This document shows, in pieces, positions 370 to 33,897 of a DNA stretch of 36,350 bases (the first letter of the stretch is position 1; the number at the start of each line of letters is the position of its first letter). The notes below the pieces were generated by a model. It was not told the DNA's origin. It saw only the letters and a list, made by a program, of their open reading frames with translations, and searched no databases. Where the stretch lies: UHGV virus genome UHGV-0207457; one strand, given 5' to 3'. A program made the translations under genes and the position numbers. The DNA comes from a virus.

Positions 370-1149
370 TTACTCTGCGTCTACCATGTCACATGCAAAT
401 TGAGTGTGTTTATATTCAGAATCAAATTTTGGTTCAATTACTTCAAGACGCATGTCACCTTTTTTGCTTACCCAGATGTTATAAGTGTTAACACGTCCAA
501 TAGCATCCTGTTTGGATTTACCTTCCATTGCGTTTGGATTCTCTTTAGATGGCTTGAGACTTGATTTATAAACATCATACTTGTCGGAATACACAAAAGA
601 TACAGGAACATCGTCTACCATTTTGATCTTAAGTTTACCGCCGTTATTATCAAAAGTTTTGTTTCCGTAGAGTTTATCTTTTACAGCTTCTGTTTCCTCA
701 CCATCGATAACTTTCCATGTAAATTTTGTAGTACATGCGTAAATCGCGGTAACATTCAGTTTCTTTACTTCTTCCTGTTTCGGTTGTTCTTCTTCAATCT
801 TCGCAGAAGTCTCTGAATCGCTCTCTGACGCGGTTTCTTCTTTAGATAATACATTCATCAAGTTTTGGATTTGAGCGTTGTATACAGCCTCCAGTGGCTG
901 AATCTGCCCGATATTGATCATTGTATCACGAACAGTTTTATTCCAGTTGCGTTGCTCTTGTTTAAGAGACGGATCAATCTTAACAGCCTTAACATATACT
1001 TCATGAAGTTTAGAATCCAGTGCGGAGATTGACTCATTAGCACAAATAAACTTCTCTGATTTGGTTATAGCCTTAGTGCAATCAAAGGACGCAGCATCAG
1101 CACCGAAAGCAGTAGCAGAAAGCACGATAGCAGCGATAATGTTTTTCAT
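370..1149 (-). CDS. Secreted DUF1311 (LprI/YecT-like) domain protein with a Cys-bounded C-terminal domain; possible periplasmic lysozyme-inhibitor-like moron
   Basis: ATG at 1149 with AGAGGT Shine-Dalgarno; N-terminal signal peptide MKNIIAAIVLSATAFGADA; DUF1311-type motif C-x-K-A-x-T-x-x-E-x-x-IC ... QRNW; C-terminal ~120 aa bracketed by Cys (YAC...FACD), reminiscent of an MliC-like fold. Confidence 0.65.
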   Translation of the reverse strand: MKNIIAAIVLSATAFGADAASFDCTKAITKSEKFICANESISALDSKLHEVYVKAVKIDPSLKQEQRNWNKTVRDTMINIGQIQPLEAVYNAQIQNLMNVLSKEETASESDSETSAKIEEEQPKQEEVKKLNVTAIYACTTKFTWKVIDGEETEAVKDKLYGNKTFDNNGGKLKIKMVDDVPVSFVYSDKYDVYKSSLKPSKENPNAMEGKSKQDAIGRVNTYNIWVSKKGDMRLEVIEPKFDSEYKHTQFACDMVDAE

Positions 1150-1507: not shown

Positions 1508-2062
1508 ATGAAAGAAGAATTAACCCTTACAGAAATTTCCCGTTTATATGGTTATACATTGAATGGTGGCGGTAAGCGATGGTTAGAAAGGGGATTGCCA
1601 TTTAACACCAATACCCGCCGCGTGCCAGCCAAAGAAGGAACAGAATGGGTCTTGAAAAATATTATCAACCCGCTTAAACAAACTTCTATCAAAGAACAAA
1701 TCGATGTAGAGAAATTACGCCGTGAGCGTGCTTTGGCAGATGCAGCCGAACGAGAGAACCAGGAAAAAATGAATCTCCTGATTCCTGTCGGGTATGTAGA
1801 ACAGGAACTAGCGGAATATTGCGGAAAGGTGAAACAGACTATTTTGCAGATCGCCACAATCGACGCTTTAGAAATTCTCGAATCTGCCACTGATCAGAAA
1901 ACATTGAAGAATAAGCTAAGGGAGATCATCGAGCGTCGTTTAAATGAAGTAGGGGACTTGTTCGAAAATGCGGATTTGGGAGAAGACGAGGAAGAAGAAT
2001 TAGCATTAATCGATGAACCGGAACAAGAACCAGAAGAAGACGATGAATTTGATGTGTCTTAA
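1508..2062 (+). CDS. Nu1-like small terminase / DNA-binding packaging protein candidate (184 aa) with acidic C-terminal tail
   Basis: Strong RBS GGAGG; N-terminal HTH-like segment, GGGK motif and EKLRRE motif as in lambda Nu1; acidic tail EDEEEELALIDEPEQEPEEDDEFD. Lies ~6.2 kb from the large terminase, which is atypical. Confidence 0.45.
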   Translation: MKEELTLTEISRLYGYTLNGGGKRWLERGLPFNTNTRRVPAKEGTEWVLKNIINPLKQTSIKEQIDVEKLRRERALADAAERENQEKMNLLIPVGYVEQELAEYCGKVKQTILQIATIDALEILESATDQKTLKNKLREIIERRLNEVGDLFENADLGEDEEEELALIDEPEQEPEEDDEFDVS

Positions 2063-2746: not shown

Positions 2747-2771
2747 GGGACTCTTCGGAGTCCCTTTTTTT
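2747..2771 (+). terminator. Intrinsic terminator (UUCG-loop hairpin + T7 tract), abutting the stop of the convergent 80-aa gene
   Basis: GGGACTC-TTCG-GAGTCCC followed by TTTTTTT. Confidence 0.65.
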
Positions 2772-3012
2772 ATGCAACAATTCGAAGTGTAAGTTTCTTA
2801 TGTTGTGTAGGTTTAGTTTCATTTCGCCACTCAGGGAATACATGATCCATCATAACCGCATTAGTCTCATCAATCAGCTTTAAGGACTTTCTCAACGCCT
2901 TATTATCAGCTTTAAGTGTTTTAATCTCTGATTCCATCGCTACCATTCTTTCTTTCATTTTGGTAATTTCTAACATCAGATTACCCAGAAATTCTTTGTT
3001 TTGATTCATCAT
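2770..3012 (-). CDS. Small coiled-coil protein (80 aa)
   Basis: ATG ATG at 3012/3009 with GGGGTGA RBS; heptad-like MLEITKMKERMVAMESEIKTLKADNKALRKSLKL; last gene of the leftward operon. Confidence 0.5.
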   Translation of the reverse strand: MMNQNKEFLGNLMLEITKMKERMVAMESEIKTLKADNKALRKSLKLIDETNAVMMDHVFPEWRNETKPTQHKKLTLRIVA

Positions 3013-3027
3013 AGATTCACCCCTCTA

Positions 3028-4023
3028 TTAAGCTGCGTATGCGTAGGCGCTGTAGTTGGTGTCGTAGATAGCGTCATGCAGTGCCATCTGTGCTTCGCGG
3101 ATCTCGTCTTCGTTTACTTCAATCTCTTCTTGTTCTTCTTCGGTATCTTCCCAAGTGGTTTTGAATTTAGCCATAAAGTTATTGCGCAGGGATTCAAAGT
3201 TAGTAACAGGTGCGGATTCTTTTTCAACTTCAACCGGAACAACTACCGGAGCAACTTCTTGTTCTACTTCTGCAACAACACCCCAGCGATAGTTAAGGAG
3301 TTCTTCCAGTTCTTCATCAATGGATTTTTCTTCAACTGCTTCAACTTCAACCGCTGCTACTTCGAAAGTGGTTTCCTGTGCTGCCAGTTCAGCTTTCAGA
3401 GATGCGTTTTCAGCTTCCAGTTCAGCAATGCGTGCTTTCAGTGCTTCAACTTCGGAAGATTCAACCACTGCAACTTCTTCTTTAACTTCTTCAACTACTA
3501 CCGGAGAAACTTCTTTCTGTGCTTCTTTTTTGCAGAAGAAGGAGGAAGTAACCTGTAATGCGTGGTTGTAGAAGGAACCGCCTTTAGCGGTGTTAACAGT
3601 ACCAGAAACATCCTTTACAGTGGATTCGGTAGCAACAGTACGGAAGCGTTTTGCGACTTCCTGGGTCTCTACGCCGTATTCGTTACGTTTGCTCTTGTGA
3701 TGCATTACAGCACGGAAGCCGGAAGCAGTTTTAACAACAGCCAGATAGTAAGTTTCATCAGCTTTAACAGCACGAGCGAAGCAATAAACGGATTCACCTT
3801 CTACCAGTGTAGGTTTAACGTGACGTTTGTCGAAACGGTTAGTGATCTGCCATTCAGCACCGTCTTTGATGCCAGCATTCTGACGCATTTCGGTCAGAGT
3901 CTTACCGGATACTACTTCAAAGGATTTGTCTTGTTTGCTTGCTTTACCTTCCATGACGGTAATGTTCAGTTTGCCGTTGGATTTAATAAACAGGTTGAAG
4001 GTGATGCGCTTAGAATTTTTCAT
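3028..4023 (-). CDS. Hypothetical early protein (331 aa): N-terminal globular domain plus strongly acidic E/V/A-rich coiled-coil C-terminal half
   Basis: ATG at 4023 with GGAG RBS; the antisense + strand ORFs here are Phe/Asn/Cys-rich low-complexity, so the - strand is the coding one. Function not recognised. Confidence 0.75.
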   Translation of the reverse strand: MKNSKRITFNLFIKSNGKLNITVMEGKASKQDKSFEVVSGKTLTEMRQNAGIKDGAEWQITNRFDKRHVKPTLVEGESVYCFARAVKADETYYLAVVKTASGFRAVMHHKSKRNEYGVETQEVAKRFRTVATESTVKDVSGTVNTAKGGSFYNHALQVTSSFFCKKEAQKEVSPVVVEEVKEEVAVVESSEVEALKARIAELEAENASLKAELAAQETTFEVAAVEVEAVEEKSIDEELEELLNYRWGVVAEVEQEVAPVVVPVEVEKESAPVTNFESLRNNFMAKFKTTWEDTEEEQEEIEVNEDEIREAQMALHDAIYDTNYSAYAYAA

Positions 4024-4074
4024 TTATAAATACTCCTGAATGCTCTGTGTTAGTTTTAATGTTTCATGCTAAAA

Positions 4075-4110
4075 GCCTCCTTGCGCCAACAGGGAGGCTT
4101 TTTTATTTTT
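4075..4110 (+). terminator. Strong rho-independent terminator on + strand, located between two genes of the leftward (-) operon
   Basis: GCCTCC-N11-GGGAGGC hairpin followed by TTTTTTATTTTT; on the - strand the same hairpin is followed only by UUUUAGC. Confidence 0.5.
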
Positions 4111-4142
4111 AAAGCCATCATATAATTCTCAGTGAAAGTGGA

Positions 4143-4322
4143 TTAACAAACTTGAACGTTAATCTTTATCTGAATTTCGTATTTCTTCATTAGCTTATAG
4201 AATCCGCTTCTATCAATTCCTTCCTTCTTAAAGAAATTCTCGCCGCCTCGTTCAGTATCGCCATAAAAGCGTTTAGCAATATCAACAATCATTTCACGAG
4301 TAAACTTAACAGGTCTAGCCAT
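4143..4322 (-). CDS. Small DNA-binding protein with Fis-type C-terminal HTH (59 aa)
   Basis: ATG at 4322 with GAGGA RBS (the track start at 4337 is TTG); EGIDRSGFYKLMKKYEI matches the Fis/NtrC-type HTH motif; first gene of the leftward operon, next to the operator palindromes. Confidence 0.55.
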   Translation of the reverse strand: MARPVKFTREMIVDIAKRFYGDTERGGENFFKKEGIDRSGFYKLMKKYEIQIKINVQVC

Positions 4323-4421
4323 AAGTAGATTCCTCAAATGTGGATTAATAAGGACAATAAAAAGAGCTTTTCGCCCTCGATACTTCTATTTATAAAATGA
4401 TTTTCAGAAAACCCTGTAAAA

Positions 4422-4443
4422 CCACTGTATATCCGATCAGTGG
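4422..4443. promoter_or_regulatory. 22-bp palindromic operator candidate CCACTG-N10-CAGTGG
   Basis: Perfect 6-bp inverted arms with a 10-bp spacer, ~100 bp upstream of the leftward operon start. Confidence 0.45.
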
Positions 4444-4506
4444 GAGCACGAATTGCTAAAGAGAAGATTAATAATTAATCAATTCGTACATTATTCAATC
4501 GAAAAA

Positions 4507-4543
4507 GCACTGTATGTTTAACCAGTGCTGTATGTGTTAACAG
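4507..4543. promoter_or_regulatory. Second palindromic operator GCACTG-N10-CAGTGC overlapping a LexA-box-like CTGT-N8-ACAG
   Basis: GCACTGTATGTTTAACCAGTGC at 4507-4528; CTGTATGTGTTAACAG at 4528-4543 fits the E. coli SOS-box core CTGT-N8-ACAG. Confidence 0.4.
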
Positions 4544-4887
4544 TGAATCAGGGGATTTTCAGAAGTGAACAATCATTTCATGCATGTATTTATACACGAA
4601 AAAATCTTGCTTATCATCAATATGGGGATTGTTTCGAAAATTTCAACCCCTACCAACGAGAAAAAGTATAAAATAATCCTTGATAGTTGTCAATACACTT
4701 GACCTAAGCGAGAAATGACTATCAAAATTTTTGTGTGAAAATGGCGGATAACGATTATCAACCTTTATAACCTATTATAGCACGGCGACCTTTTGATCAT
4801 TCCTTTTAAATCATTCGGTTACCGCGATTTTTGGTGATTTTATGATTAAATAATATACAAGAATTTTCTATCAAAATTTTTGATGAA

Positions 4888-5010
4888 AACCCTACACTAC
4901 AAACCTACACTTTAAAGGGATTGGCCTACACTACACTAGCCAGTAAACCTACACTATAACACCCTCAAACCTACGCTATGAAACCTACACACCTACACTA
5001 ACCCTACACT
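4888..5010. repeat. Iteron array: at least 8 direct copies of (A)ACCTACAC(T) with roughly helical phasing
   Basis: Copies start at about 4891, 4904, 4925, 4948, 4970 (variant CCTACGC), 4984, 4993, 5003; spacings 9-23 bp; sits in a 1.2 kb ORF-free region. Confidence 0.7.
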
Positions 5011-5349
5011 TCAATCTCATAAGTGTATGATCTTGAAAGACATTTAACCTCACAGACCATAGAATATAAAATTCGAACTAACGTTCTCCTTTTTGCTCGT
5101 TTTCTCTCACTACGTTCAAGAAAGATCTCGCAAAAAGAATACGGCGTAGCCGTGCGCGAAGCGCCCATCAACACCTTCTAAGACCTGCAAGCAGGATTCG
5201 AAAGGGATTGGATAGTTCGCTTCGCTCACGTTCACGCCTACGGCGTTCACTCACTTTTGAAAGGATTTTCTTAGAAAGGGATTTAATACTAGTTACTAAC
5301 TGATTCTAGTAAACGAACGAAGTGAGTAACAATCACTTTCTAGAAAGGT

Positions 5350-5390
5350 ATTGGTATCCCTTCGGGATTGCAACCTTCGGTTGCTAAATT
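5350..5390 (+). ncRNA. Tandem UUCG-tetraloop hairpins (ATCCC-TTCG-GGAT; GCAACC-TTCG-GTTGC) ending an ORF-free structured segment; candidate small RNA 3' end or processing site
   Basis: Two adjacent perfect stems with TTCG loops followed by an A/T-rich tract; no ORF of 60 aa or more anywhere in 4338-5583. Confidence 0.25.
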
Positions 5391-5583
5391 GCTTCCTGAT
5401 TATTATTTCTCCAAAAGAAAGATTCTTATATTCTAAAGATACTTCTTCGTTTTGATGATGATTTAATCAAAACTATGAAGGAGGGCTATGCCCGACTGAA
5501 TACAATCACCTTTCATAATAACAAGAATTTTCTCTTTATAAATAATATTAGATTGATTCACTTTCTTTTAGAGGATTTCCACT

Positions 5584-6051
5584 ATGAACCATAAAATGAC
5601 TACCACTACTCCTTTCATCCTGTTAGGTTTTGATGCTGATAGCTTCCACAATGACAAGTTAATGAAGATGTTCCGTGAACGTGGTTATAACATCCTTTTC
5701 AATTCCGATGAATCCCATTTCTCTAGTGCATGGTATGCGTTTTGCCGTAATAAGAAGCCGACCATTGTTGTTAACGTCTTCACCGATGAAGATCGCTTAA
5801 AGTACCAGAATCTACCAGCAATTATTGTTCGTGATGATCTGCCGTTTGAAGTCCGTTCCGGTGACATTGATCTGGGTAGCTTCGTTACTGTCTATGAACT
5901 GGATGAAGCAATGTTTAACTACGGCAAAGAAACCGCTCAGGAAGCCCCAGAACAAGATGAAGAAGATGAGGAAGACGAAGACTACGCTCCAATCTGTTTT
6001 TCTTCTCAGAATGGCTTCTACGGTTACGATGAAGGCTTAGATATGCTGTAA
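5584..6051 (+). CDS. Hypothetical protein (155 aa) with acidic C-terminal tail
   Basis: ATG at 5584 after AGAGGA; tail QEAPEQDEEDEEDEDYAPICF; function not recognised. Confidence 0.65.
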   Translation: MNHKMTTTTPFILLGFDADSFHNDKLMKMFRERGYNILFNSDESHFSSAWYAFCRNKKPTIVVNVFTDEDRLKYQNLPAIIVRDDLPFEVRSGDIDLGSFVTVYELDEAMFNYGKETAQEAPEQDEEDEEDEDYAPICFSSQNGFYGYDEGLDML

Positions 6052-6073
6052 GTTAGGTCAACCCTTTGGCGTC

Positions 6074-6114
6074 TTGTCAAGGTGTATTGACAAAAATTTC
6101 TGACTTTTTATGAT
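6074..6114 (+). promoter_or_regulatory. Sigma70-like promoter (TTGACA-16-TATGAT) whose -35 lies inside a palindrome TTGTCAA-N6-TTGACAA
   Basis: TTGTCAAggtgtaTTGACAA at 6074-6093; TATGAT at 6109-6114; a further TTGACA at 6124; upstream of the small basic ORF and the antirepressor gene. Confidence 0.45.
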
Positions 6115-6171
6115 TATCGCACTTGACAACTTTGATTATATTTGACCTAGATTTGTAAAGAGGATGTAAGC

Positions 6172-6351
6172 ATGAAAACCTTTACCCGTGAACGTGAACC
6201 AGGGGTGATCGAAACCCGCCGTCGTCGTTATGTTAAGGGCTTTGGTTGGGCTACCGAAACCGTGGATGTGGAATATAAAGACGAATCCAAAGCACCGAAA
6301 CCATCACCTTTGCAAATGGCTTTACGCGGATTGTGTGCTAACAACAAATAA
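6172..6351 (+). CDS. Small basic protein (59 aa)
   Basis: ATG at 6172 after AAGAGGATG; MKTFTREREPGVIETRRRRYVKGFGW...; below the ORF-track length cutoff. Confidence 0.4.
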   Translation: MKTFTREREPGVIETRRRRYVKGFGWATETVDVEYKDESKAPKPSPLQMALRGLCANNK

Positions 6352-6442
6352 GAAATAGCTCTTATAAATAAAATTGTTCCGGTGGTGATGCCGGAACAGG
6401 GAGGATTAAATCGCAAAACCGTTAATTAAGGGGAATTTTACT

Positions 6443-7258
6443 ATGAATACTGTTACTACTATGAATACTGCTGTTAAAACTGCTTCCGTGTCTCTGGTTG
6501 TTGATAACACCAAACCACTGACCATGTCTTCTCGTCAGATCGCTGAATTTACCGGAAAAGAACACAAAAACGTTAAAGCTGATATTGTTAAGATGTTTAA
6601 AGCACTTGAATTAGATGCGCTGAAATCTCAGCGTATCTATTTTGACCAATATGGACGCGAACAAACCGAATATCACCTTGACGAAGAAATGACGCTGACT
6701 CTTGTTACTGGTTACGATGTTAAACGTCGAATGATTGTTATTCAGGAATGGAAACGACTGAAAGAAGAAAATGAAAAACTGCGTCAGGAACGGTTAGCCG
6801 TTAACCCGTATGCAGACTTTGAAGAAACCGACTGGATCGAACTGGCGTTAAAGAAAACTCGCGAGAACAAGCAACTGATTACTCTACATCATCGCAAATC
6901 CGTAGATAGCCATTCAATGACGCGTTTGTTAGGTGCTAAAAAGGGCGCTACGAAGGTTAAAGAAGCACTGACGGCCTTACGTACTGCCGGATACATTGAG
7001 CGCGTCTATGATGAAAATAACAAGCCGTGTGGGTATGTTGCTAATGATTCCGCGATACCGTTTTGCAGCATGAACGCTCACTATCAACTTTCTTTCACTG
7101 TTGATGTGCTTCCGGTGCTGGTTGAATTGGGTGTTCTTGAAGAAGAACAAAAAGCAGCTTTGACACTGCCTAAACCGAATAACACGATCATGATTCAGAA
7201 TAAAGCGACTATCATGATTCGTCAGAATGTTGGATCGCTAGAACACTTCGGACTGTAA
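6443..7258 (+). CDS. Rha-family phage regulatory protein / antirepressor-like (271 aa)
   Basis: N-terminal TMSSRQIAEFTGKEHKNVKADIVKM matches the Phage_pRha motif; separate C-terminal domain; followed by an intrinsic terminator. Confidence 0.75.
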   Translation: MNTVTTMNTAVKTASVSLVVDNTKPLTMSSRQIAEFTGKEHKNVKADIVKMFKALELDALKSQRIYFDQYGREQTEYHLDEEMTLTLVTGYDVKRRMIVIQEWKRLKEENEKLRQERLAVNPYADFEETDWIELALKKTRENKQLITLHHRKSVDSHSMTRLLGAKKGATKVKEALTALRTAGYIERVYDENNKPCGYVANDSAIPFCSMNAHYQLSFTVDVLPVLVELGVLEEEQKAALTLPKPNNTIMIQNKATIMIRQNVGSLEHFGL

Positions 7259-8293: not shown

Positions 8294-10198
8294 ATGAAAC
8301 TGATTTCTAATAAGGCAAAATTAAAAAAGATTCTCAGAAATATCACTGCTGCAATTCGCCCACCTAAAGCAATGAAACCTAGCGAGTGGGTAGAGGCTAA
8401 CGTAGTGGCTACCGATGGTGTTAAAGCCGGATCTCTAATTAAATTGCATCCCTTCCAACGTGGAATGATGGACGCGATCACCGAAGACCGTAGAAAAATT
8501 GTGCTAAAGTGCTCGGCACAGTTGGGTAAAACTCTTGTGCTAAACGGTATTATCTTTCACAGGATCGCCAGTAACCCTACTAATATCGGTGTTTTGCAAG
8601 CGAACGTTCGAGAATTGAACTCATGGATTGCGGGTAAGGTGAAGCCAGTATTAGAGGCAACCCCAGAATTAAAGGCGATGATCACCGACAAATCAGATCG
8701 CAATGCCGTTAACAACTCATCGATTATTCAGCTTCGTAACGGATCATTCATGTATTTCATGTCGCTGAACAGTCCATCACACTTGCGCGGTAAGACACTG
8801 CCTTTGATTATTCTGGATGAAGTTGATGCGGCTGATGAGTCAGACGAAGGGAACCCGATCCAGCTAGCGGAACAACGCGCAACCACTTTCGGTGATGATG
8901 CAAGGATCGTAATTGCTTCTACTCCAACTTCGCGGGATGGGGCGATAAACCAACAATGGGAACTCTCGGATAAAAGAAAATACCACGTCGTTTGCCAGCA
9001 TTGCGGACACAAACACGTAATGGAATGGAGTAGAGTATTCTTTGATTGGCATGTAATCAATGGTAAATCACTGCCGAATCCAGACACAGCCGTTTACCGT
9101 TGCCCGTCATGTGAAACTGATTGGTCAGAACCAGATCGCCTCCGTGCTGTTGCTCAGGGAGAATGGGTCGCCACCGAACCAAATGCGGAAGTAATCGGTT
9201 TTCATGCTAACCGCCTTATGTCTCCGTTTAGTTCTATCCGTGCGTGTGTGGTGGACTTTGCTGATAGCTACGCGAATATGTCACTGGCAACGTTCTATAA
9301 TGTGGTGCTCGGTGAAACCTTCGATGATCTTAACGAAGACCGCACAGCCGACGAACTGGAAACGCTGAAAACTGACATTAGCTTAGATAATATTCCTGAT
9401 GATGTTCTGGCTCTGGTAGGTGGAGTTGACCAGCAAAAAGACCGTCTGGAATCTACCTTGCTGGGTATCTCTCGTAAGGGGATATGCGTAGTTGATCACC
9501 GATCATTCTATGATGTGAACTGCGAACGCCACGAATCGCCAGCATATGACCAGCTTTATAACTTCCTGAAAGCGAAATTCTATACCCGATCCGGTGAACG
9601 AATCCCGATGCTATCTGCTTTCGTGGACTCATCGAACGGACGAGCTACAAACGTGATCTACCGTTTTTGCACTAGGTGGCAAAACCTATGCGCCATTAAA
9701 GGCGCAAGTAATGCTGATGCTCCAATCCTTCCGGCTAAGGACACAAGAACGGGTGGTTTTACCCTTAAAATTCTGGGCGTAAACAACCTTAAAACGATGA
9801 TCCGTGAAATGATTAACCGGAACTTGAGAGATGGCGATCCTCACACTGTCTTCCAGATTGGCGACGTTCCTGATGACTATTGCGAGCAATTGCTTTCTGA
9901 ACAGTTGAAACGGCAGGGTAATACCACACGTTGGGTAAAAGTTGGTCAGCAACGAAACGAGGCGCTCGACTGCCTGGCTTATTCCTATGCTGCTTCTCGC
10001 CATGTACTCAATAAAATGTCATGGGAAAAACTCGAAGCCATCAAAGATAGTTTGAACCGTGAACCAGAAGAATCCGTAGAAGCTCCTAAATCGCAATCTG
10101 ACGAGAAAATAGAAGAAACTAAGCCAATCACACGACCACAACGTCAAAACATCGCCAGACGCCCAAATAGAGGCCGTGGCTGGGTAACATCGTTCTAA
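8294..10198 (+). CDS. Terminase large subunit, lambda gpA-like (634 aa)
   Basis: Walker A-like SAQLGKT, Walker B ILDEVD, zinc-finger-like CQHCGH...CPSC; size and position ahead of the portal. Confidence 0.85.
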   Translation: MKLISNKAKLKKILRNITAAIRPPKAMKPSEWVEANVVATDGVKAGSLIKLHPFQRGMMDAITEDRRKIVLKCSAQLGKTLVLNGIIFHRIASNPTNIGVLQANVRELNSWIAGKVKPVLEATPELKAMITDKSDRNAVNNSSIIQLRNGSFMYFMSLNSPSHLRGKTLPLIILDEVDAADESDEGNPIQLAEQRATTFGDDARIVIASTPTSRDGAINQQWELSDKRKYHVVCQHCGHKHVMEWSRVFFDWHVINGKSLPNPDTAVYRCPSCETDWSEPDRLRAVAQGEWVATEPNAEVIGFHANRLMSPFSSIRACVVDFADSYANMSLATFYNVVLGETFDDLNEDRTADELETLKTDISLDNIPDDVLALVGGVDQQKDRLESTLLGISRKGICVVDHRSFYDVNCERHESPAYDQLYNFLKAKFYTRSGERIPMLSAFVDSSNGRATNVIYRFCTRWQNLCAIKGASNADAPILPAKDTRTGGFTLKILGVNNLKTMIREMINRNLRDGDPHTVFQIGDVPDDYCEQLLSEQLKRQGNTTRWVKVGQQRNEALDCLAYSYAASRHVLNKMSWEKLEAIKDSLNREPEESVEAPKSQSDEKIEETKPITRPQRQNIARRPNRGRGWVTSF

Positions 10199-32154: not shown

Positions 32155-33834
32155 TTAAATTCCAAATTCTTGTAATGGACCTGGTATTTCTTCTTCTGGT
32201 TTCCAGTTCTTATCTGTCAGCATGTCTAAACATGGATGCAGAACAAGCCCGTTACTCTCCAGAATCTGCCTATCATTGATAGTCTTCAAATCAACGAAGA
32301 TCCGGCCTTTCCTCGGTCCTCTTGAATTTTCTATTACAACTCTCTGGGTCTTGCCATCGATGTATTCCAGTACAAACAAGTTTTTGTACTTGTCAATCCT
32401 GCTGCACCCGATCCGTTTTAGAGCTTGCTTAATCTTAAACCGGACCTTAATGCGATCCTCGTTGTAAACATCTTCTAAATCAAATTCTGCGAGCTTCTCC
32501 CAGCCTTGAGAGTCAACAGAATACATTTCCTCTTCTGCCATCTTAAGTTGATTGTAGAGTGTTTCACGCTCGCTATTGAGGGTAGTAATCTGATCGGCTA
32601 GCTCCTTCGTTGCTCCTGTCATAGCAGAAAGGGTAATCAGGTTATCAATCTTGCGTGATATTTCATCAATCTGTACTTTCAAAGCCGGAACCGGATTAGC
32701 CTTATCTTCAGCAATCCAGATTTTATCAGCCAGCAATTGCAATACAGCTTTCTCTAATTGGTCGCCGCGAAAACTCCAGTTTGTATGCACACATTCAATA
32801 CGACTAGAGCGCATTGCATCGCATGAATAACGATATTGGTTAGGCCGTCTGTTTGTTCCTTTCACCTTAACCATAGCGGAACCGCAATGTTCACATTTCA
32901 ATAGACCAACACCACTAAGCAAGGGAATAGGTTTAACTTCTTCTTTGTCTCCAAAGTTACATGCTCTAACACCAATGCTTTTCTTAAGGTGATAAAACTC
33001 AGCGTCATCTAGCACACGAGGATAATAATCCTTTAACTCATACTTAACGCCATCTACAGAGATTTCCTTGATACCAATCAAAGCGCGGGTATGGAACAAC
33101 CTTTCAATCATTGCCCGTGACCAGTTTGAATGCCTCTTGTGACTTGCGGCTGGTGGTGGTGTGTATGTCGCGTTAAGGTGATCCAGTATCTCGGCGGTTG
33201 ACCGTCCATTCCTGCGTAATTCCACAACTTCCTGAACAATAGGGAAGAAGACCGGATGAGGAAGCACATAACCAGATGTGGTATCAGTCCACCACATATT
33301 CTTTCCAATTTCCTCGATTGCAACAGCCGGATTTTGTGGATTTTCTTGATGAGCTTTAATCTTAATCAGTGCGCTTGAGTTAGTACGATTGCGCTTAGTC
33401 TGGCTTTCCTCATTACCACGGATGAATAAAAGGATGGAGAACATCAGGTCCATCGGGTTAGCGGTAACAGTATCAAGCGAGTAGATCTTGTTATCCATGC
33501 CAGTAACAATGGTTATCCCCCTACGGATGATTGAAAGGAATAACTCCTGCGCACTGACAATATCGGCACGGGATAAACGGTCCAAGTTTTCGATGAATAG
33601 CCAGCTACCAACAGGAACGGATCTACCTATTGCATCAAGGAAACGAGATAGCGCCCCTGTTTTGGAGTTAGCACCCTTAAACGCAGATACACCCAGATCC
33701 TGATAATCATTTACCAGTTCAAGGTCATACTTTACCGCAATCTCTCTAGCCATCCTGATTTGTCGTTCATAACTCGAACCATCATTCTGACGCATAGACG
33801 AGAAGCGAATATACGAATACAGTTTAGTTTTCAT
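32155..33834 (-). CDS. Large serine recombinase (integrase), 559 aa
   Basis: N-terminal resolvase catalytic domain (YSYIRFSSMRQ ... SYERQ ... ENLDRLSR), central recombinase domain, zinc-ribbon-like CEHCGS...YRYSC, C-terminal coiled coil; ATG at 33834 (track start 33849 is TTG). Confidence 0.85.
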   Translation of the reverse strand: MKTKLYSYIRFSSMRQNDGSSYERQIRMAREIAVKYDLELVNDYQDLGVSAFKGANSKTGALSRFLDAIGRSVPVGSWLFIENLDRLSRADIVSAQELFLSIIRRGITIVTGMDNKIYSLDTVTANPMDLMFSILLFIRGNEESQTKRNRTNSSALIKIKAHQENPQNPAVAIEEIGKNMWWTDTTSGYVLPHPVFFPIVQEVVELRRNGRSTAEILDHLNATYTPPPAASHKRHSNWSRAMIERLFHTRALIGIKEISVDGVKYELKDYYPRVLDDAEFYHLKKSIGVRACNFGDKEEVKPIPLLSGVGLLKCEHCGSAMVKVKGTNRRPNQYRYSCDAMRSSRIECVHTNWSFRGDQLEKAVLQLLADKIWIAEDKANPVPALKVQIDEISRKIDNLITLSAMTGATKELADQITTLNSERETLYNQLKMAEEEMYSVDSQGWEKLAEFDLEDVYNEDRIKVRFKIKQALKRIGCSRIDKYKNLFVLEYIDGKTQRVVIENSRGPRKGRIFVDLKTINDRQILESNGLVLHPCLDMLTDKNWKPEEEIPGPLQEFGI

Positions 33835-33897
33835 ACCATTTCCAAACAAAAACGCCCCTACCGCGTATTATAACGATAGGGGCTAGGTGATTAAAGA

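Follow-up and report, generated by a model that had tools for sequence, protein, structure and literature searches.

The DNA analysed here, a stretch of 36,350 bp that is referred to as the window, was found to be an Escherichia coli prophage of about 35 kb. Besides a lambda gpA-type large terminase (TerL) and a large serine recombinase, the prophage encodes a lambda-family portal, a protease-capsid fusion and an M15 endolysin, and the tail genes include T4 gp34/gp38-like fibre domains. The left end of the prophage matches the truncated hicB flank of two related loci (L002 and L003) and other relatives are integrated in ycdX, the family thus using at least two sites. A search of the literature on the ycdX prophage returned nothing relevant. 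In the related locus L001 (NZ_CP038857.1, 21950-22647), the PigCaeca_2 prophage copy is broken by IS1 and the terminase-to-head region is lost. The gene for the Nu1-like protein p184 is located 6 kb upstream of the large terminase gene, with a leftward early operon in between. It is preceded by a very AT-rich intergenic stretch (1150-1507), a candidate cos site.

The ORF-free region that is the subject of this work was detected in 58 of 5,426 complete E. coli genomes (about 1%). Among sequenced phages and plasmids no related DNA was found apart from two segments similar to Krischvirus (RB49-like) phages, and the best TerL match among sequenced phages, phage DCP80, showed 43% identity. A TerL-profile scan of species-representative genomes revealed one relative only, in Atlantibacter, where a T4 endonuclease VII homologue is encoded just upstream of the large terminase gene (L031, 9351-9806). 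One Krischvirus-like segment (769-1155) comprises half of an LprI-like gene (370-1149, minus strand) and shares 95-97% nucleotide identity with a Krischvirus hypothetical gene. This indicates a recent exchange between a temperate siphovirus and lytic T4-like myoviruses of the RB49 group. The other segment (5396-5476) is about 78% identical to an intergenic element found two to three times per Krischvirus genome; in RB49 it is found between genes 3 and 2, ahead of the small inserted ORF RB49p130. This element may be a mobile promoter/stem-loop cassette.

Between positions 4338 and 5583 (1.25 kb) only short ORFs with GTG or TTG starts were present, and no CDS is annotated in RefSeq across the corresponding array-bearing region in four related prophages, in agreement with the 1.2 kb ORF-free region of the original prediction. 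Within it, eight copies of the heptamer CCTACAC lie on the same strand, seven of them exact and one reading CCTACGC; at least eight direct copies within about 120 bp had been proposed, and this count holds. The start-to-start spacings are 13, 21, 23, 22, 14, 8 and 11 bp, and an overlapping half copy (ACTACAC) begins at 4930. The window contains 10 copies of the heptamer, where shuffled sequences predict 2.25 ± 1.5; just three of the 10 lie outside the array, and none of 100 shuffles matched this enrichment. The motif had originally been written as ACCTACAC. This 8-mer is also in excess (7 matches against 0.52 expected); while the repeats as such exist, the exact 8-mer accounts for just four of the array copies, the remaining ones reading C/G-CCTACAC, and the extended consensus of the iteron was determined as AAACCTACACTA. 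The coordinates of the array and of the surrounding features are collected in Table 1.

Table 1. Features of the array region and of the prophage genes discussed in the text (positions in the window)
Feature	Position	Strand	Remarks
p184, Nu1-like small terminase	1508-2062		phrog_57; weak Phage_Nu1 match in L035
p80, small coiled-coil protein, same variable gene cassette as p331	2770-3012	-	C-terminus TLRIVA
p331, candidate cognate iteron-binding protein (family 1), 331 aa	3028-4023	-	perfect covariation with the array
p64, small HTH-like protein	4143-4337	-	first gene of the leftward p64-p331-p80 operon
Three LexA-box-like sites (CTGT-N9-CAG)	4425-4440, 4510-4525, 4528-4543		between the array and the p64-p331 operon
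Strong leftward sigma-70-like promoter	4665-4693	-	TTGACA-17-TATACT; faces the p64-p331-p80 operon
AT-rich stretch left of the array, candidate DNA-unwinding element	4830-4890		conserved across types
Conserved 23-bp repeat, copy 2	4860-4882	+	holds palindrome TCAAAATTTTTGA; copy 1 at 4711-4733
Type-specific DNA cassette (array and about 240 bp)	4886-5250		blastn homology boundaries against type B
Iteron array	4891-5009	+	core starts 4891, 4904, 4925, 4948, 4970 (CCTACGC), 4984, 4992, 5003; all others exact CCTACAC
Degenerate inverted copy CATACACT	5022-5029	-	closes the array; read from the sequence
Putative promoter Px, -10-like TAGAAT	5060-5065	+	about 50 bp past the last iteron, then a small hairpin
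Type-specific structured segment	5089-5238		hairpin arms 5089-5107/5119-5137 and 5143-5163/5218-5238; GCGAAGC-type mini-hairpins
Two adjacent hairpins with UUCG loops	5356-5384	+	invariant in most relatives; UGCG loop in two loci
Large terminase, lambda gpA-type	8294-10198
Large serine recombinase	32155-33849

The copies had been expected to lie on one face of the DNA. The array is indeed periodic at about 11 bp (R = 0.83 at 11.2 bp, p about 0.02 after scanning periods from 9.5 to 12), but it is out of phase at 10.5 bp (R = 0.17). The best periods of other arrays, from the relatives described below, were 10.8 bp for the type A array of a Providencia prophage (p = 0.006), 10.7 bp for type B (p = 0.015) and 10.6 bp for type C (p = 0.10). 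Lone CCTACAC heptamers also occur on the coding strand inside the p331 (3807-3813, minus) and p80 (2805-2811, minus) genes and are kept in all type A contigs fetched via the N-terminal domain of p331. They could be due to chance or to autoregulation.

On its left side the array adjoins DNA whose AT content over 40 and 60 bp is the joint highest of the window (top 0.04%). This DNA includes an IHF-like site (4868-4882), one mismatch away from the IHF consensus, in the second copy of the 23-bp repeat. Strong divergent, back-to-back promoter-like hexamers are located at 4665-4728, and the LexA-box-like sites are conserved in the E. coli relatives of types A to C and absent from the loci L015 and L027 and from the Providencia prophage. 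No CI-like repressor was recognised in the prophage. The LexA boxes suggest SOS control, and this control of the prophage may be direct. GC skew was uninformative, being confounded by the switch in the direction of transcription.

On its right side the array is followed by Px, a weak promoter-like site spanning 5037-5065. Its -10-like element does not vary within type A and is conserved in Providencia; its -35 element is weak and not conserved, and one repeat copy is placed near the -35 position. Beyond Px, about 500 bp are densely filled with GC-rich mini-hairpins with GAA, TTC or UUCG loops (5089-5505 in the window, 8360-8760 in L031 and 4414-5070 in L036), and CGAAG/CTTCG is 3- to 12-fold over-represented in most relatives, including those from Atlantibacter and Providencia, L035 being the exception. 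The fold z-scores of the structured segment (5070-5400) were -5.7 for the minus strand and -2.6 for the plus strand. No Rfam match was obtained for 4000-6500 at E ≤ 1, and RNAalifold analysis of 29 sequences of the conserved right part gave almost no covariation, these sequences being too similar. At 5474-5505, a hairpin with a variable loop and stem length (GGGC-TTT-GCCC or GGC-GAA-GCC) is enclosed by two invariant motifs of non-coding sequence, TATGAAGGAGG and CCGACTGAAT; the hairpin keeps its structure while its sequence has changed.

Comparison with related prophages revealed that both flanks are kept and that a different repeat array occupies the same position. Four types were found. Type A consists of CCTACAC units, as in the window, and type B of TTGCCCCTGAA in nine direct copies and one inverted copy. 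In type C, TCCCCG is repeated 14 to 17 times and followed by three copies of ATACCTACA, and type D contains about eight copies of TCCCCCGGTATTAG followed by about 13 of GATGTACAAGG. A single terminal inverted copy, read from the sequence, was also observed in types B and C. Likewise, a -10-like element (TATTAT or TATATA in types B, C and D, as read from the sequence) and a hairpin follow the last repeat at a distance of 25-50 bp in all four types, in cassettes that are otherwise non-homologous. The proposal of a multi-site protein-binding platform, for example of origin iterons, is strongly supported by these arrays. The original prediction had counted absence of the motif from related phages against a function. 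The motif is indeed absent from types B, C and D, yet since each of these carries its own array in the same place, its absence becomes positive evidence.

The boundaries of the exchanged DNA were located by pairwise blastn. Between types A and B homology is lost in two segments only, namely 2771-4024, which comprises p80 and p331, and 4886-5250, while the approximately 860 bp between them stay about 81% identical. Homology to type C is lost over 4888-5342. In types C and D a second array is found together with a second protein of about 335-365 aa (6885-6935 and 3634-4635, respectively, in the type C locus L004; 5900-6140 and 8364-9455 in the type D locus L035). Two loci are hybrids in which two A-type units lie directly upstream of a type B array (L015, 1670-1745; L027, 416-500). 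There, the inverted pair GTGTAG-N9-CCTACAC overlaps promoter-like hexamers, and these phages, which have no LexA boxes, encode the B-type protein. The A-type units could be a recombination scar or an operator.

The type of array agreed with the allele type of p331 in all 31 contigs in which both were visible (15 of type A, 13 of type B, two of type C and one of type D), with no discordant case. The Providencia locus, which combines a p331 homologue with a CCTACAC array, is an additional concordant case, and the 12 viral contigs found via the N-terminal domain of p331 all carry the array 0.9 kb upstream. Moreover, the number of arrays per type equals that of proteins with such a domain, one in types A and B and two in types C and D. 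None of p64, p155, Rha, p201, the TerS-like p184 and TerL tracks the array type. The protein p184 is 88-100% identical across types A to C, and TerL occurs as two alleles (58% or 98% identity), each of them with both A and B arrays. As these neighbouring genes assort independently, the region recombines freely, while the link between p331 and the array stays unbroken. The array is therefore very probably the DNA partner in an exchangeable cassette for protein-DNA recognition, in which p331 would be the protein partner, and it can be proposed with similarly high confidence that p331 recognises the array via its N-terminal domain and assembles on it co-operatively. We infer direct binding of p331 to the array from this pattern.

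A cognate gene had been described as not evident in the window, a view that the covariation of p331 overturns. The small HTH proteins had been named as possible binders. Among them p64, whose Atlantibacter counterpart matches HTH_28/HTH_23, exists as two alleles within type A (54% identical in the type A loci L019 and L022) and is excluded by covariation as the binder or determinant of specificity.

The array was also examined for traces of selection. In the Providencia prophage, whose p331 homologue is 58-66% identical, eight perfect CCTACAC cores are present and the spacers have diverged, with core spacings of 13, 20, 20, 23, 11, 22 and 11 bp. Its control region differs, being devoid of LexA boxes and of p80. 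Among the 12 distinct type A sequences, indels measure exactly 22 bp (twice) or 11 bp (once) and hence correspond to whole repeat units, and the four independent core substitutions all affect position 6 (CCTAC[A]C to G, G, C and T). Such a pattern is the one expected of base-specific protein contacts in what would be a helically ordered array. The copy number varies from six to nine among relatives. The repeats are real and under purifying selection.

The protein p331 consists of an N-terminal domain of about 175 aa, mostly beta in a structure model, an acidic coiled-coil middle part (about 190-230) and a C-terminal part that is likewise acidic and has YAYAA as its last residues; in the type C counterpart the end is LGLAA, similar to an ssrA tag. 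Comparison with Pfam, PHROGs and PDB sequences, also with a six-sequence profile, gave coiled-coil noise alone. When 1.84 billion cluster representatives were searched exhaustively with HMMER, five matches were returned, all to close relatives or fragments, and a profile search of a 5.8-billion-protein set found only entries annotated as 'hypothetical protein', from Escherichia, Shigella and one Providencia. The structure models were too poor for a fold to be assigned, and no ATPase, helicase, primase or recognisable winged-helix domain was found. The first proteins of the four types (p331, B, C1 and D1) are distant homologues (E 1e-5 to 1e-10), while the second proteins of types C and D (C2 and D2) form a separate family 2 (E = 1e-29). 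The C-terminal tail of p80 matches that of the family-2 proteins (TLRLVA in types C and D), and the tail is the only part they have in common. The small protein p80 is probably a remnant or an adaptor.

Tentatively, and at slightly less than even probability, we favour a role of the array and p331 as the lytic replication origin. The eight sites, all in one orientation and with a period near 11 bp, are most likely bound by the N-terminal domain of p331, whose central coiled coil would mediate oligomerisation into a nucleoprotein complex beside the AT-rich stretch. As a lambda-O-like initiator or organiser, p331 could then open the AT-rich flank and recruit host replication proteins, possibly assisted by transcription from the promoter-like element near 5060. 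An origin is favoured because of the number of sites, their 11/22-bp geometry and the adjacent AT-rich stretch; because binder and sites are exchanged as a module, as in lambdoid O/ori, plasmid Rep/iterons and satellite rep-ori; and because p331 has an O-like three-part layout in a phage otherwise lacking a candidate origin or initiator. No initiator, helicase, loader, primase or polymerase gene was recognised with Pfam or PHROGs among the approximately 30 ORFs scanned across the prophage, most of at least 80 aa, which leaves the roles of origin and initiator unfilled. With respect to the usual features of origins, eight direct repeats are present, apparently specific to their own initiator in view of the covariation, and an AT-rich element that could serve for unwinding adjoins them. 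Neither a DnaA box (TTWTNCACA) nor an exact IHF site (WATCAANNNNTTR), both common at origins and not universal, was found in 4300-5600.

Several observations speak against an origin. In p331 neither an enzymatic domain nor one of an established initiator family was found (Rep_3/RepA winged helix, lambda O, RepA_N and primase-helicase were looked for). The Atlantibacter relative keeps the ORF-free hairpin region, with a Rha/ANT-type regulator at the position of p331, and neither a p331-like protein nor a short iteron array was found in it. The combination of two different binders and two arrays that types C and D show is unusual for an origin, and a conserved -10-like element follows shortly after the array, an arrangement equally apt for a transcription factor.

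A close parallel is provided by the lambdoid phages, where lambda, phi80, 82 and P22 (gene 18) combine different iterons with matching N-terminal DNA-binding domains of their initiators. In these modules, an AT-rich segment flanks the iterons, and the initiator is composed of an N-terminal binder, a flexible linker and a C-terminal part that binds its partner. Here too, direct repeats and binder are swapped among relatives, the flank is AT-rich and the protein is tripartite. In contrast, lambda has four iterons of 18-19 bp inside the O gene, whereas here 8 to 17 cores of 7-8 bp are placed in an ORF-free region, 0.9 kb away from the gene across a promoter region; no P-like helicase loader was recognised among the scanned ORFs, and no similarity of sequence or fold was found between p331 and O. 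In phage P4, type I iterons (TGTTCACC) in ori and crr are bound by the alpha protein. The many octamer-sized cores in a non-coding, here putative, origin are alike, but alpha is a primase-helicase and p331 has no enzymatic domain.

The iteron plasmids of the theta type (pSC101, R6K, F, P1, RK2) are similar in having five to eight direct repeats about 22 bp apart and an AT-rich unwinding element. Their Rep proteins often bind an inverted copy for autoregulation, and incompatibility follows from the iterons. They differ in the length of the iterons (17-22 bp), in their Rep_3/winged-helix initiators and in the usual DnaA boxes, none of which was found here. SaPI/PICI Rep-ori and the Vibrio satellite PLE also resemble the present locus, since their non-coding repeats are specific to the element's own initiator. 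However, p331 shows neither the helicase nature of the SaPI Rep nor the RepA_N fold of PLE RepA, and the element described here is a complete phage and not a satellite. The PLE RepA, which acts on repeats of a non-coding region, was recognised by structure only and not by sequence (PMC7145576), and this precedent implies that an initiator acting on non-coding repeats can escape sequence recognition.

Alternatively, the array and its inverted copy would form a transcription-control platform on which p331, as an activator or a heteroimmunity-style repressor, controls the leader and p155-p59-Rha via Px. The exchange of cassettes would then be a swap of specificity, as in repressor-operator modules. 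Short, asymmetric, helix-phased sites that are bound co-operatively are known from the Mu repressor operators O1-O3, the P2 Cox boxes and the 186 Apl sites. The Mu repressor is built from an N-terminal DNA binder, a coiled-coil region and a ClpXP-sensitive C-terminal tail, and heteroimmune relatives exchange binder and sites together. The array is like these regulators in its many sites of this kind, and the layout of p331 is Mu-repressor-like. On the other hand, the Mu, P2 and 186 sites overlap early promoters or attP, Cox and Apl have about 90 aa, and homology of p331 to these proteins was not detected. Transcriptional control would account for the -10-like element and hairpin that follow the arrays of types A to D despite non-homologous cassettes, for the conservation of the Px -10-like element in type A and Providencia, and for the repeat copy near its -35 position. 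It would also suit the Rha/ANT regulator that replaces p331 in Atlantibacter and the promoter-like hexamers under the A-type inverted pair of the two hybrid loci, and for promoter control it would be natural to have a pair of regulators with a pair of arrays, the situation of types C and D. Yet 8 to 17 sites over 120-290 bp are far above what an activator or repressor typically needs, and the -35 element of Px is weak and not conserved. The array adjoins the extreme AT-rich stretch instead of overlapping the strong divergent early promoters, from which it is 160-200 bp away, and only the weak Px site is near; moreover, the phage would be left with no candidate origin or initiator. Control of transcription, the main rival of the origin, is considered possible but rather unlikely. 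It is compatible with the origin that we favour, the two not being mutually exclusive, and it is common for iteron initiators to autoregulate and for origins to be activated by transcription.

The remaining explanations are far less probable. The units could act at the RNA level: like a CsrB-type sponge RNA, a rightward transcript would use its CCUACAC copies to bind or titrate an RNA-binding factor, be it p331 or a different one. All copies are on one strand of an untranslated region that leads into highly structured sequence with UUCG-loop hairpins, and covariation with p331 fits RNA binding as well as DNA binding. This is nevertheless very unlikely, given that the period of about 11 bp and the indels of whole 11- or 22-bp units point to double-helix geometry, that an inverted copy ends each array type, that Rfam gave no match and that the neighbouring segment folds more stably on the opposite strand. 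A packaging site (cosB or pac) for the terminase small subunit or an accessory protein, one of the original options, is highly improbable. In lambda cosB, repeated gpNu1 sites are combined with an IHF site, and the present phage likewise possesses repeated sites, an adjoining IHF-like site and a gpA-type large terminase. However, p184 does not co-vary with the array, and as it is conserved across types A to C its sites should not differ by type; both TerL alleles occur with A and B arrays, and the array is 3.3 kb away from terL and 2.8 kb from terS instead of being adjacent to them.

A centromere of the parS/parC type with a centromere-binding adaptor, which had also been suggested, is just as improbable as packaging. 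Centromeres such as those of ParR/parC and TubR/tubC consist of around ten short direct repeats, but this prophage is integrated and encodes a serine recombinase, no ParA-, ParM- or TubZ-type NTPase was found among the scanned ORFs of the window, and related DNA is present on no plasmid. Non-functional repeats, generated by slippage or by chance, would be in line with the variable copy number of six to nine. This explanation is the least credible of all and is, from the comparative data, effectively refuted: the enrichment was unmatched in 100 shuffles, the cores are perfect across genera while the spacers have diverged, substitutions are limited to one core position, and arrays are replaced type for type with the matching protein. 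An array for Cox, Apl or Xis, directionality factors of about 70-100 aa with sites at attP, was rejected: some 4.8 kb separate the array from the end of the prophage, the protein that co-varies with it has 331 aa, and the integrase is a serine recombinase.

For the lineage as a whole, a more far-reaching and rather doubtful, though possible, picture would be that of widespread temperate siphoviruses of enterobacteria with no canonical replication gene that replicate from a 1.2-kb non-coding origin, the specificity of which is set by exchangeable cassettes of an iteron array and an orphan protein (p331-like or C2/D2-like). At least four specificities would exist in E. coli, LexA cleavage might directly turn on the entire early region, with the initiator operon, in most of the E. 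coli members, and the proteins would constitute a new class of phage replication initiators.

The combination of short iterons with a swappable specificity domain is, by analogy, the classical logic of lambdoid O/ori, plasmid Rep/iterons and SaPI/PLE rep-ori. What is new here are the proteins, two orphan families with at least four specificities in a common but unstudied lineage of E. coli prophages. If the array is an origin, these would represent new initiator families and four orthogonal protein-site pairs. Such pairs could serve as orthogonal replicons or DNA-binding parts and would explain the compatibility of co-resident relatives. If it is a platform for a regulator, the array would be co-operative and of unusual size, its specificity being modular in the same way. 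Either way, an unannotated 1.2-kb gap is turned into a testable protein-DNA pair.
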